A stretch of 9,632 bases of DNA from a virus (IMGVR_UViG_2600254997_000008); one strand, 5' to 3'. Positions 1-5,930 are shown, numbered from the stretch's first letter. Program-made: numbers and translations. The notes: a model not told the origin generated them from the sequence alone.

Positions 1-240
1 CTGAGCGAGAGAAGAGGCCAGTGACACAAGGCGTCGTGTACGACGCGGATCACCGAGACGGGCATGTCCAAACTGCTCGTTAGCCCATGAATAACAATCA
101 GAAAGTACCATAACAGACCCGAAGAAAATGAAATATAAGAGAAGATCAACGGGTGAGGAAAAAGTTCAAAAAATCGCTGCCGGGGAGGAAGGAAACTACC
201 GGATGGAAAGAGTCCCCCTAAAGCAGACTGACAGACATCA

Positions 241-262
241 CAAATCCCCGGGTGGGGATTTG
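241..262. repeat. Perfect palindrome: 9-bp stem CAAATCCCC / GGGGATTTG around a 4-nt centre GGGT
   Basis: Read directly from the sequence at 241-262. Not followed by a U-run on either strand, so not a typical intrinsic terminator. Lies immediately inside the IS50-like terminal sequence. Confidence 0.5.
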
Positions 263-276
263 TGTATAAGAGACAG
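258..276 (-). mobile_element. IS50/Tn5-like terminal inverted-repeat-like 19-mer (minus strand CTGTCTCTTATACACAAAT)
   Basis: From memory, the 19-mer matches the IS50 outside end (CTGACTCTTATACACAAGT) and the Tn5 mosaic end (CTGTCTCTTATACACATCT) at 17/19 positions each. It sits exactly where stf homology ends. The other end and any target-site duplication are outside the window. Confidence 0.3.
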
Positions 277-1054
277 CTTTGGCCCGGGAGGTCCCACCAC
301 GGTGGGGATTCGGTTTACGGCGTCTTCCGCCGCTATCCTGCTTTGTTCCGCTGACTGTGCGCTTTCTGCTGACTCCCGGGCTTTTTCTGCTGCGGTCGTT
401 GCATCCCTGGATGCATTACCGGCTGCACTTTCTGCCGTCTTTCTTGACAATTCAGCTTCTGCTGCACTTTGTGATGACTCACTGGCTTTTTGAGCGGCCG
501 CAGAAGCCGAGGACGAGGACGCATCCTCTGACTGCTTTGCTGAGGCTGCACTTTCCGTCGCCTGCCGGGCTGACTCCGATGCATCCCCTGCAGAAGTCTC
601 AGCATTTACTGCACTCTTTTCCGCCTGGCCGGCTGATATACCCGCATTCCTCGCTGACGTCTCTGCCTCTCCGGCATTCTTCTTCGCCTCCTCAGCGTGA
701 CGCGCTGCCTCTTCCACCATCAGTTCAAAACGTCGCAGTGCCTCCGGACGGGCATCATCCTCCGTCATGGCACCGAGAAAATCATTCAGCGTACCGGGTT
801 GAGAATCTTCATACACGGTGATGGTCCCGGCATGTGACGGCGGGAATCCCTCCACCAACAGAATAACGCTGTACTGACCGTACTCAACGTCCATACTGTA
901 ACGCCCGGCTTCATCCGGATTTTCTGAGGCCAGCGTGTTCACCACCACAGTGGTACTGTTACGTTTTGCTTTCAGCTGGATTGTGCAGTTCTGTACCGGT
1001 TTTCCTGTGCCGTCTTTCAGTACACCTGAAATCTTTACTGCCATATTCACCCCA

Positions 1055-1108: not shown

Positions 1109-1708
1109 TCAGAATTTATAACCGACACCCACGATGAAACCGTCAGTGCGCCAGTCACCACTGCCGGAGCCTTCATAAGCAATATCAATGGCCACGGATT
1201 CGGTCGGGTTAAACTGCACGCCAGCCCCCCACGCCAGAGACGTGTTGCTGTGGCGACCGTCATCACTTCCGGTCAGCACATCGTGCGTTTTCCCCTTGTT
1301 GTCAGTTACGCGGAGATAATCCCCGGAGAAAGTCGACACACGGCTGTAAGCCACACCCGCCATCGCATACGCGCTGAACCATTCATTCACGCGCACAGAC
1401 GGCCCCGCCATCACGCTGAACCAGCGGTTACGCACGGAATCTTCATGCCAGCGGGTATCGCTGTAACGGGTAAGCTGGCGATTCTTGTCTCCTGCATAGC
1501 TGAATGACGTCACCAGCCCCAGCGTGTCCGTAAATTCATAACGGTATTTCACGTTAATCCCGTTAAGATTATCGCTACCGGGAGCGTTCGTCCGGGCATG
1601 AAGATACCCCGCGCTCAGTGTGGACTGATGTTCAGACGCCCATGCAGGCGCACCGGATACGGACAGACAGATGGCTGCGGACAAAATGGCTGCACAAACT
1701 TTACGCAT
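1109..1708 (-). CDS. lom: Outer-membrane beta-barrel protein Lom (Ail/Lom/OmpX family), a lysogenic-conversion moron
   Basis: 199-aa ORF. N-terminal signal peptide [25 protein letters not shown]-terminus ...[24 protein letters not shown] matches lambda Lom and ends in the aromatic residue typical of outer-membrane barrels. Sits between J and stf as in lambda. Shine-Dalgarno GAGAGG lies about 6 nt upstream of the ATG at 1706-1708. Confidence 0.85.
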
Positions 1709-1732
1709 AATTACCTCTCGCTTTTCTGCAAT

Positions 1733-1757
1733 AAAAAAGGCACCATTTCTGGTGCCC
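1733..1757 (-). terminator. Rho-independent terminator-like hairpin between J and lom
   Basis: On the minus strand: stem GGCACCA / TGGTGCC with loop GAAA, followed by TTTTTTATT (plus-strand A-run at 1733-1738). Lies downstream of the J stop at 1778 and upstream of the lom start. Confidence 0.5.
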
Positions 1758-1777
1758 TTATATGGGTTATAACAATT

Positions 1778-4700
1778 TCAACGAATACTGATGCCGGAAG
1801 CGGCTTTTTTGGTCACAATCACCGTACAGTCGGTGATATTACCTGCCCACTGATTGCCTTTATGGAAAACCTTAAACTCCAGAGTGACGCTTCCCCTGCC
1901 ACTCGGCATATCAATAACCGCACTGTAGCTACCGGGAATGGCCCCTTTAGTTTCTCTGGATGCGATTAATACACCGTTTTTGCGAACTTCAAAACCATAA
2001 CCCGTGTAACTTGTACCTCCCGGGTTATTACCACTTCCCGGATAGCTATACGCTATTCCGTTAAAGATAATGGGCGGAATAATGATTTGACGGTCAAAGT
2101 TATGATCATCGCTGATGGTGACTGTAACCGTCCCGTTTGGTGTTTCCGTGTTACCCCACGTACCAGCCTGTTTCGGAAATGATTTGGATACAGCTTTAAC
2201 GAAGTCACCTCTGACCTGAGTCGCCTCCAGCATGCCCTTAATCGTACAGTTTTCATTTACCGTGACGTTGTTGAGCGTCCCGGAGTTCGCATTCACGTTA
2301 CCGCTGATATCCGCATTTCTCGCCGTCAGCCGCCCGTCCGGTGTCAGGGAGAATGCCGGAGGATTACCGCCGCTGGTAATTGTTGGAGCCGTCAGATACT
2401 TCAGGAACACTTCGTTCATGAATATCTGGTTGCCCTGCGCCACAAACATCGGCGTTTCATTCCCGTTTGCCGGGTCAATAAACGCGATACGGTTAGCGGC
2501 AACCAGGAACTGGCTCAGTTTGCCTTCCTCCGTATCCTCCATGCTGAGGCCAAGCCCCGCGACATAATGCCTGCCGTCCTCGGTCTGCTCAATTTTGACG
2601 CCCCACATGGCATTCCATTTATCGTTGGCGTCCTTCCACTCTTTCGAAAACTCCTCCAGTTTGCTGGCGTTATCCTCCGTCAGCTCGACTTTTTCCAGCA
2701 GCTCCTTGCCGAGATGGGATTCGGTTATCTTGCCTTTGAAAAAATCCAGGTAACCTTCCGCATCATCGCTCGCCCGACCGACGGCCTCCACGAATGCCGA
2801 TTTGCCAACGGTGTTCACACTGCGAACGTAAAAATAATAATCATGGCCCGGCTTAATATTGATACTGGCGGCTATCCAGTACAGCGCCGTGCCAAGATAG
2901 CGCGCTGTGGTTTCAACCTGCCGGATATCGGCAATCCGCTTTTCCGAGAACCAGAACTCAAACTGTACCGTCGGATCATAAACCGCAAGATGCGGCGTGG
3001 CGGTTATCTGAAAATAGCCCGGCGTCAGCTCAATCCGCGACGGCGCTGCCGGTGCGGCAATCCGGAACGATACCGATGCCGGATCGCCCTGCTGTCCCCG
3101 GGCATTTACCGCCCGGACCTTCAGCGTGTAACGCCCCAGCGCCAGTTGCCTGAAGCGGTATGTGGTTTCCGTCGTCCGGGCCGTGCTGACCAGCCGCTCA
3201 CTGCCGTCATCCGCTGCCACGGTCAGGCGAAGCAGGAAACTCACGCCCTTCACCACCTTCGGCGTGTCCCAGCGGGCCAGTACCTGATACTCCCCGCTGT
3301 CTGCGGTGACTTCTGCGGTCAGATGCTGCACTGCTGGCGGCGTGACACCATTCACCGTGCCGCTCTGGTTACCGTCAAAGTGCGCCCCGTTATCCACGAT
3401 GGCCTCTTTTGCCGGCACATGCTGCACGGCAGTGATGGCATACGTGCCGTCATCGTTCTCACGGATACTCACACAGCGGAACAGGCGCTGACGCAACGTC
3501 GGCAACTTCAGCCCCCATACGCTGTATCCGGCAACGCCGTCAGGAACACGGCTCACTTTCACCTTCACGCCGTCGGTGACGGACTGGACCTCCACGCTCA
3601 CCGGATTACCCTGCCCGTCAACCAGGCTTATCAGCGTGGTGCCGGAGGATGGCAGCGTGATTTCACGGTCGAGCGTCAGCGTCCGGGGTCTGGCTGTTCA
3701 CCGCCAGCACGCGCCCGCCGGTGCTGATACCGGCATAGTCATCATCGCAGATTTCAATGACATCGCCCGGTACATGGCGAAGCCCTTCAGCACCCACGCT
3801 GAAGTCCACGGTCTGCGTTTCCAGCAGCTCCGTTTTAATCAGCCACAGCCCGGCGCGGTGTGCCTGCCCCCGACTGGTACAGCCAAAGGCATCCATCTTC
3901 GTGACGTTACGACCGTAACGGGCAATGGCCTGCGTGTCCTCCACAAGCTCCGTTGCCGTCTCCCAGCCGTTATCCGGGTCAGTCCAGTTCACCTCAACGG
4001 CATTATGGCGGTCCTTCAGGGCGCTGAAACTGTAGCGGAACGGCGCGCCATCATCCGGCATCACCACATTACTGCGGTTATAGGTCCACACCTTATCCGA
4101 TGGTCGGTCCTGCACGAACGTCAGCGTCTGCCCGTTCCATACCGGCATACAGCGCATCGCAGAGCAGAAATCACTGAGCACATCCCACGCCTTGCGCTGT
4201 GTGGTCAGGTACGCATTACAGGTGATGCGCGGCTCCGTGCCGCCAAAGCCGTCCGGCACTGACTGGTCGCAGTACTGGCCGATGACATACAGCGCCCATT
4301 TATCCACATCCGCCGCACCAAGACGTTTCCCCATGCCGTAGCGCGGATGGGTCAGCATATCCCACAGACACCAGGCCATGTTGTTGCTGTATGCCGGTTT
4401 AAACGTCCCGTCCCAGATACCGCTGTATTGCCGCGTCTGCGGGTTATAGTTCGACGGCACCTGCAGAATGCGCCCGCGAAGATTGATAAATTACGGCTTC
4501 ACCTGCTGGCTGCCGAACTGCTCCGAATCCACCTGCACGCCGACCAGTGCCGTGTTCCGGGTAGCAACTGTTTCACATCGATGATTTCGGTGTATGACGA
4601 CCAGAGCGTTTTGTTCTGCAGCTGGTCTGTGGTGCTGTCCGGCGTCATCCTGCGCATCCGGATATTAAACGGGCGCGGCGGCAGGTTACCCACCACCACC

Positions 4701-5197
4701 GAGGCCAGATACTGCGAGGTGGTTTTGCCCTTAATGGTGATGTCTTTTTCCGTCACCCAGCCACCGTTACGCTGTATCTGAACCAGCAGGCGGACTTCCG
4801 ACGGATTCCTGTCTCCCTTTGAGGTGGTTTCCACCAGTGCCTGTACACCGAAGGTAAAGCGCAGACGGTCGATGTTTGCCGACGTGATGGTCCGGGTGAT
4901 CGGCGTGTCATATTTCACTTCCGTACCCAGCACAGTCTCGGAGCCGGAGGATTCAAACCCCTCCGGCGGAGTCTGCTCCTGCTCACCTGCCCGGAACACC
5001 ACCGTGACGCCGGAGATATTGGTATTCCCCTCACTGTCCAGCACCGGCGTACTGTTCAGCAGCACGCTTTTTAATCCGTCCACCGGACCTTCAATCGGCC
5101 CTTCGCTGATGACATCGATCACACTCAGCAACTGCGTGGATTTCAGGTTGTCCTTCGCTTCGCGCGGGGTATGCCCCTTACTGCTGCCTTTACCCAT
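1778..5197 (-). pseudogene. J: Tail tip / host-specificity protein J (central tail fibre), disrupted by frameshifts and an in-frame stop
   Basis: Three consecutive minus ORFs match lambda J from N to C: 4499..5197 (MGKGSSKGHTPREAKDNLKSTQLL...), 3663..4460 (PSNYNPQTRQYSGIWDG...) and 1778..3601 ([15 protein letters not shown]... to the C-terminus). The breaks are single-base insertions at roughly 4564-4565, 4555-4556, 4498-4499, 4488-4490 and 4483-4484, which also create an in-frame TAA at 4491-4493, plus one in the G-run at 3685-3688. The span is 3420 nt; removing six inserted bases gives 3414 nt, or 1137 codons (lambda J is 1132 aa). Confidence 0.85.
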
Positions 5198-5257: not shown

Positions 5258-5930
5258 TCAGCGACCAATCACCACGATTTCACCACCATCACCTTCATCA
5301 GCTGTACTGATCTCCTGAGATGCCACACGTGACCCCACGCGCATTTCACCGAACAGAACGGGCAGAACATTGCCCTGGGCAACCATGTTATCCAGTGAGG
5401 AGAAATAGGTGTTCTGCTTACCGTTATCCGTACTGGTCGCTGTGGGCGTCCGGGCTTTCGGTGCCAGCATCTGCGCCACACCACCGAGCACCATACTGGC
5501 ACCGAGAGAAAAACAGGATGCCGGTCATACCTCCGGCCCCCATGGCTGCCCCCCATGCTGCAAGGGTGGCTCCGGCGGTAAAGAATGATCCGGCAATGGC
5601 GGCTGCTCCCAGGACAATCTGGAATACGCCCCCTGACTTGGCCCCGGCGACTCTGGGAACAATATGAATCACAGCGCCATCAGGCAGAGTCTCATGTAAC
5701 TGCGCCGTTAATCCGGACGTGCTGACGTCCCGCCCGGAAATCCGTACCTGATACCAGCCATCGCTCAGTTTCTGACGAAACGCCGGGAGCTGTGTGGCCA
5801 GTGCCCGGATGGCTTCAGCCCCCGTCTTCACACGAAGGTCGATGCGGCGGCCAAATCGTTGTAAATCCCCGTAAAGGCAGATGCGCGCCATGCCCGGTGA
5901 CGCCAGAGGGAGTGTGTGCGTCGCTGCCAT
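5258..5930 (-). pseudogene. I: Tail tip assembly protein I, frameshifted
   Basis: ORF 5424..5930 carries the lambda I N-terminus (MAATHTLPLASPGMARICLYGDLQRF...). ORF 5258..5494 carries the C-terminus (...SMVLGGVAQMLAPKAR...VVIGR). The frame switch maps to a 5-A run at 5509-5513 (minus strand TTTTT; four would give ...GILFSLGASMVLGG). The span is 673 nt; minus one base gives 672 nt, or 223 aa, which equals lambda I. The I start overlaps the K 3' end by 102 nt, as in lambda. Confidence 0.85.

Follow-up and report, generated by a model that had tools for sequence, protein, structure and literature searches.

A phage 434-type J ending in a lambda-like prophage, with OmpC rather than LamB as its probable receptor

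Host-range change through exchange of the C-terminus of J, the case of phage 434 and OmpC included, has been textbook material since the 1970s. The locus studied here, a viral sequence of 9,632 nt that we refer to as the window, carries a J gene whose C-terminal end departs from that of phage lambda. This raises the question of what kind of ending it is, how it came to be joined to a lambda-like J, and which outer membrane protein it recognizes. A sequence-only reading of the window had suggested that J may recognize a receptor other than LamB and that the change arose by exchange of the C-terminus. We compared the ending with J proteins of phages, prophages and solved structures, and weighed the candidate receptors together with the condition of the gene itself.

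Gene order in the window and the boundary within J

The tail-tip module of a lambda-like prophage fills the window on the minus strand. The gene order, H-M-L-K-I-J-lom-stf, is colinear with lambda and 434 according to the ORF list and blastn; H is cut by the window end and only the start of stf is present. J as a whole occupies positions 1778-5197 (minus strand), with its stop codon at 1778-1780, and is distributed over three segments on that strand. These are an N-terminal ORF of 232 aa (4499..5197), a middle part in a different reading frame (3663..4460) and a C-terminal ORF of 607 aa (1778..3601). According to the ORF list and Pfam, the C-terminal ORF contains two Ig-like/FN3 domains, the tail tip fibre domain and the receptor-binding domain (RBD); the Pfam domains Ig_J, Ig_J_second, Phage_Tail_Tip and Ig_GpJ_C follow one another in the normal order. 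Two further ORFs, at 1598-1969 (plus strand) and 2053-2256 (minus strand), were rejected as by-products of the J frame, since translation of that frame gives 98.7% identity to Ayreon and the DNA is identical to that of intact J genes in three genomes. On the 3′ side of J lies an intact lom gene (Ail/Lom outer membrane protein; 1109..1708, minus strand; full-length Pfam Ail_Lom match, E=2.3e-121), which belongs to a 434-like cassette. It is followed by the N-terminal 270 codons of the side tail fibre gene stf (238..1050, minus strand; Pfam phage_tail_N) and by the end of an ISEc13 element of the IS4 family (1-279), which matches numerous copies at 99.6-100% identity, EPEC E2348/69, for one, having 32.

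Comparison with lambda J by tblastn gave 97.2% identity for lambda residues 1-215 (the N-terminal part), 96.9% for residues 214-502 (the middle part, frame 3) and 79.2% for residues 500-1131. The fall in identity within the last of these segments is concentrated at its end. In a residue-level alignment, each 50 columns contained 44-50 identical residues up to lambda residue ~984, and the following ones contained 24, 11 and 18. Amino acid identity to lambda J is thus ~95% up to residue ~984, while the last ~150-155 residues (window 1781-2239) are 38.0% (tblastn) or 40.7% (MAFFT) identical. The diverged stretch begins with the last of the central straight fibre before the RBD (2192..2239, minus strand), from which point identity to lambda falls, and continues through the RBD proper (1781..2191, minus strand). 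These results agree with the sequence-only reading, which had described the last ~150 residues as alignable with lambda J and heavily substituted. Its placement of the diverged region at 1778-2250 was correct within a few codons, the first three positions being the stop codon and divergence beginning near 2239. It had also held that the upstream ~980 residues follow lambda J; this is true at ~95% identity, but only after the frameshift zones at ~4484-4567 and 3688 are corrected.

At the DNA level the boundary is abrupt. The blastn alignment of the window with lambda runs from 9632 to 2222 at 94.7% identity, is interrupted, and restarts inside lom (1236-695) at 88%. Because the lambda alignment ends so abruptly at 2222, the boundary is a sharp recombination joint, a mosaic boundary, and not gradual or scattered drift. 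The join to the otherwise lambda-like J falls at about lambda codon 985. Acquisition of the C-terminus by exchange is supported by this boundary and by the 434-colinear cassette described below.

The 434-type ending and its predicted fold

When the last 159 residues of J were aligned with the C-terminus of phage 434B J, 150 of 159 (94.3%) were identical and no gaps were required; J of lambda h434 imm21 likewise matched at 150/159. A tblastn search with these 159 residues against 50,697 phage records retrieved 243 records that fall into two discrete classes, 74 with at least 90% identity and 169 with less than 60%, with none between. At 98.7%, the close class contains Ayreon, many Stx1a- and Stx2c-converting phages, PhiR49_1 and Perceval. 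Lower identities were found for ev099 and phi458 (both 98.1%), cdtI (97.5%) and phage 2851 (93.1%), and phage 434 itself lies within this class (434B 94.3%, 434 wild type 93.7%). Judged by these alignments, the last ~140-155 residues of the window's J are a phage 434-type (h434) receptor-binding domain.

The similarity to 434 is not confined to J. By blastn, window positions 6264-277, a stretch that reaches from K across J and lom to stf, align colinearly with 434B DNA at 94.4% identity. Since colinearity continues through lom and stf, the whole distal cassette is 434-like, beyond the J RBD alone. The window also shares with phage 434 and lambda h434 imm21 (OL657226, OL657227, OM418627) the J length class, 3414 nt without the six inserted bases discussed below, and the downstream arrangement of a 600 nt lom followed by a 434-type stf. 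It differs from phage 434 in nine substitutions within the RBD, several of them beside predicted loops, in the frameshifted state of J and in the interruption of stf by ISEc13.

Lambda h434 imm21, sequenced by Feiss et al. (PMC9119081), allows the comparison to be extended to the classical host-range hybrid. The first ~2,000 nt of its J do not differ from lambda; a switch follows near nt 2,000-2,200, after which J is identical to 434B up to the stop codon. As the hybrid J is 434 sequence from crossover to stop, this domain type is part of the classical h434 host-range allele. The left crossover of that allele lies inside J at codon ~700 (OM418627, 2506-5919), and the 434 sequence runs on through lom, stf and tfa.

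Ayreon, the O157:H7 Stx1a and Stx2c phages, PhiR49_1, Perceval, ev099, phi458 and cdtI carry the same allele subgroup as the window (97.5-98.7%). Unlike the window, these phages have an intact J and are inducible or plaque-forming; the RBD is therefore functional in them. More distant relatives include the natural J C-termini of A8 and 1A2, which share the fold of the window RBD; A8 also has a long loop 2. Identity is 48.7% to A8 and ~44% to 1A2, the latter figure being approximate since 1A2 was translated by eye from an OCR-damaged supplement. By sequence, the A8 and 1A2 endings are placed as sister classes of the window type, with different alleles, and the window RBD may act in a similar way. 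The possibility that an A8 or 1A2 chimera carries the window domain was rejected: no DNA words of the window occur in the supplement of PMC11338833 (OCR-damaged text), and the sequences belong to different classes. Gifsy-1 J, which uses OmpC, was likewise set aside as a relative, its C-terminal region being just 18% identical to that of lambda, with nothing comparable reported.

The sequence-only reading had proposed a domain prediction for the J C-terminus. Pfam assigns residues 471-606 of the 607-aa ORF to PF12421, Ig_GpJ_C (E=9.3e-27; score 94.2 bits, curated cutoff 26.2; positions 1-134 of the 135 in the profile), a family named ‘Tip attachment protein J, C-terminal receptor binding domain’. 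The best phmmer match among PDB sequences was A8 gpJ 713 (9wca; E=2.3e-31), followed by lambda J (8xcj/8iyk) at ~1e-23 (2.2e-23), both covering the whole domain. An AlphaFold2 model of the RBD was computed as a monomer only, from 17 sequences. The homologous proteins behind the alignment were short fragments of at most 270 aa, mainly of the 434 type, and the model has moderate confidence (mean pLDDT 75, pTM 0.67). It is an all-beta sandwich. Its top Foldseek matches were 8xck, 8xcj, 9wca and 9wcb (TM 0.68-0.71, E ~1e-14), and the next matches were ten orders of magnitude weaker. The first two of these are the lambda central fibre in the closed and LamB-bound states, and 9wca is A8 gpJ in the closed state without receptor. 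The title of 9wcb gives A8 gpJ with EDL933 OmpC, which means that a solved structure of a J-family RBD on OmpC already exists. The prediction thus returned a known J domain and a beta-sandwich that matches solved J RBDs.

The RBD of lambda J (8XCJ/8XCK) resembles that of the window in Pfam family, in fold (TM ~0.7), in its position at the central-fibre tip and in the upstream ~980 residues, which are ~95-97% identical. It differs in its receptor, LamB (PMC11101478), in having 38-41% identity within the domain, and in indels at four loop regions. Relative to lambda, the four changes in the window are insertions of 2, 6 and 1 residues and one shorter segment, and all lie in mostly non-strand segments of the model. 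Loop region 1 (2135..2182, minus strand; model residues 41-56, mostly non-strand) carries the 2-residue insertion near lambda residue 1012. Loop region 2, PGSGNNPG (2018..2041, minus strand; model residues 88-95, non-strand), carries the 6-residue insertion near lambda residues 1048-1051. The single-residue insertion, near lambda residues 1077-1084, is in loop region 3, TKGAIP (1934..1951, minus strand; model residues 118-123, non-strand), and the shorter segment, near lambda residue 1107, is loop region 4, GNQWA (1844..1858, minus strand; model residues 149-153, non-strand). Among 1,207 natural J proteins, Maddamsetti et al. (PMC6646904) described four indel hot spots, and the four indels of the window coincide with them; the hot spots at 1012 and 1107 are positions required for the switch of lambda to OmpF (PMC6646904). 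In the lambda domain, four bottom loops, L1-L4, insert into LamB (Ge et al., PMC11101478). The four loop segments predicted in the window would be the counterparts of lambda L1-L4 and would lie at the receptor-facing end.

Receptor assignment and state of the locus

Outer membrane protein Ib (OmpC) was reportedly identified by Hantke in 1978 as the receptor of phage 434. Two later sources bear on the effect of the 434 J protein in lambda. A passage in PMC3509688, citing Fuerst and Bingham 1978, states that replacement of lambda J by 434 J leads to binding of OmpC, the receptor of 434, and PMC11101478 states that lambda with 434 J uses OmpC, 434's own receptor. Because the h434 hybrid also carries 434 lom, stf and tfa, the hybrid alone cannot show whether the RBD or the side fibre is responsible for OmpC dependence. 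In the A8 and 1A2 chimeras, exchange of the J C-terminus alone, with stf removed or replaced, moved lambda particles from LamB to OmpC, and the two chimeras accept different OmpC alleles (PMC11338833). A K-12 derivative was the isolation host of Ayreon (Ayreon announcement), whose J ending differs from that of the window at 2 of 159 positions, so the receptor of Ayreon is present on K-12. For Ayreon, cdtI, the PhiR phages and the long-tailed Stx phages, no receptor of this J type was found named in the Ayreon announcement, PMC6646904, PMC13190303, PMC8065619 or a 2026 receptor-prediction preprint.

We consider OmpC, and not LamB, to be the likely receptor of the window's RBD, with a high degree of confidence that derives from homology. 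The earlier suggestion of a non-LamB receptor is supported to the same extent by the 94.3% identity to the 434/h434 ending, a reported user of OmpC. It would have been contradicted by close similarity to lambda J or to a protein already shown to bind LamB; the identity found is 38-41%. The 434-type RBD is a beta-sandwich and forms a trimer where the central tail fibre ends. By analogy with lambda J bound to LamB and A8 gpJ bound to OmpC, its distal loops would enter a trimeric porin from the extracellular side, at the mouth of the channel. Binding of the porin would then cause a rearrangement of the fibre and opening of the tail tip for DNA ejection. Insertion of its loops into a porin by the window allele itself may be expected on the same analogy. 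The RBD arrived in a recombination cassette of J C-terminus, lom and stf, colinear with phage 434.

Variation within the 434 type is centred on positions 41, 45, 46 and 56; 86, 87 and 98; 136; and 145, 147 and 152. Positions 86, 87 and 98 flank loop region 2, and positions 145, 147 and 152 are in or beside loop region 4. Several of the nine differences from 434 (9/159) are in or beside predicted loops, namely S86, Y87, S98, R136 and Q45/A46. The variants observed within the type (window 1781-2302) include AYSYPG, AYDDPG and AYDNPG, and VFHKGNQW and IFQKGNQG. The clustering of these positions in and beside the predicted loops may reflect selection at contact sites or against OmpC variants.

Could the domain nevertheless bind LamB, having accumulated neutral differences from lambda through drift that such a domain tolerates? 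Both RBDs have the same fold, belong to one family and share a beta-strand core. However, the window RBD falls outside the lambda-type LamB-binding class, with 38.0-40.7% identity to lambda residues ~985-1132 and indels in all four loop regions, and its DNA cannot be aligned with that of lambda. The nearly identical 434 domain confers an OmpC-dependent host range (PMC11101478, PMC3509688), and the discrete identity classes, with no record between 60% and 90%, indicate cassette exchange and not drift. We regard LamB binding as highly improbable. A quite unlikely alternative keeps the 434-type fold and supposes that the subgroup of Ayreon, the Stx1a and Stx2c phages and the window, marked by S86, Y87, S98, H147 and W152, binds another porin (OmpF, PhoE or OmpN, for example) or is restricted to certain OmpC alleles. 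Sites at which the window departs from 434, and which are also variable among 434-type endings, do cluster in or next to the predicted loops; as few as four point mutations in lambda J switch it to OmpF (PMC6646904), and the A8 and 1A2 chimeras differ in the OmpC alleles accepted (PMC11338833). Yet the identity to 434 is 94%, without indels, Ayreon came from a K-12 derivative, PhiR26_1 (96% over the domain) is recorded with K-12 hosts, as is 434, and nothing points to another porin. More broadly, that the subgroup differs in the OmpC alleles it recognizes, or uses a second porin, seems to us unlikely; if it did, the hypervariable positions would record an arms race with the surface loops of OmpC.

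A separate matter is whether the 434-type domain is functional at this locus. Relative to lambda and 434B, J contains single-base insertions at ~4567, 4558, 4499, 4490, 4484 and ~3688, which add six bases; the one near 3688 is a single C that turns CCC into CCCC and brings the frame back. Nearly all of them lengthen short homopolymers, and J leaves and then re-enters frame, so that the gene has three frame segments and no single uninterrupted frame of ~1130-1140 codons. Further single-base indels were found in H (~7649), M (~7366), the L/K junction, K (~6577 and ~6438) and I (~5513). In total the window has twelve such indels relative to lambda and 434B, eleven insertions, mostly in homopolymers, and one deletion, and they frameshift H (at its 3′ end), M, K, I and J. 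The stf ORF ends at 238 after 270 codons, compared with 437 in relatives (intact homologues are 1314 nt); its disruption by ISEc13 is real. With J unreadable as a single protein and stf interrupted by an insertion sequence, this is a prophage that is defective or was poorly sequenced, and not an active phage; J here is either a pseudogene or a sequencing artefact.

If J is a pseudogene in a decaying prophage, the RBD would be a functionless relic here, a reading to which we give about even chances and which is compatible with the 434-type assignment. The six insertions that split J into three frames, the additional indels in H, M, K and I and the truncated stf all agree with it. Against it, the RBD itself has no indel and no stop codon, and its DNA is 100% identical to that of intact annotated J genes in 3 complete E. 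coli genomes. The changes are also nearly all insertions that lengthen homopolymers, and the J cluster is private, a pattern that sequencing or assembly error fits at least as well. Across 14,705 homologous places in complete E. coli genomes, the cluster of five insertions did not occur once; the best full-length matches reached 97.2%, a shortfall equal to exactly the five gaps, and an exact 40-mer spanning two of the J insertions had no match in GTDB representative genomes. These private, homopolymer-type insertions suggest sequencing or assembly error more than natural decay. Either way, as J is frameshifted and stf is cut, the 434-type RBD would speak only for the receptor of the ancestral phage and not for present activity of the locus.

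Other rearrangements were noted nearby. Relative to lambda and 434B, gene I has lost 3 nt and gained 3 nt at points ~8 nt apart (window 5433-5445), a local change that keeps the frame; the insertion at ~5513, which splits I into two ORFs, is separate from this rearrangement. Downstream of tfa, E. coli DCE7 carries the type III effector genes EspW and DUF1076 (NleG-like), and 434 and lambda h434 imm21 carry NleB-like, NleC-like and NleH-like genes, so that phage 434 itself carries effector morons. In the window, the effector region of the relatives is replaced by ISEc13.

Prevalence of the 434-type ending and its meaning

Of 5,426 complete E. coli genomes, 2,112 contain the 480-nt domain DNA (window 1778-2257). 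The corresponding lambda DNA (lambda record L001 9440-9904) was found in 98 of the 5,426, in every case with at least 99% identity; the five lambda-type genomes listed all belong to laboratory strains, among them the DE3 strains C41(DE3), C43(DE3) and BL21-Gold(DE3). Escherichia albertii and Shigella sonnei are further sources of 434-type protein fragments. The 434 type is therefore the ordinary J ending among E. coli prophages and the lambda type is rare, the difference being about twenty times.

The 434-type J ending seen here is already known, extremely common and well understood both structurally and genetically, and its receptor class is no longer open. Complexes of J with OmpC have now been solved, and such domains have already been used to retarget lambda particles. 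For annotation, the unusual load of single-base insertions in the tail genes of the window means that they should be treated as suspect sequence, and J proteins with this C-terminal sequence can be labelled as 434-type and as probable OmpC binders.
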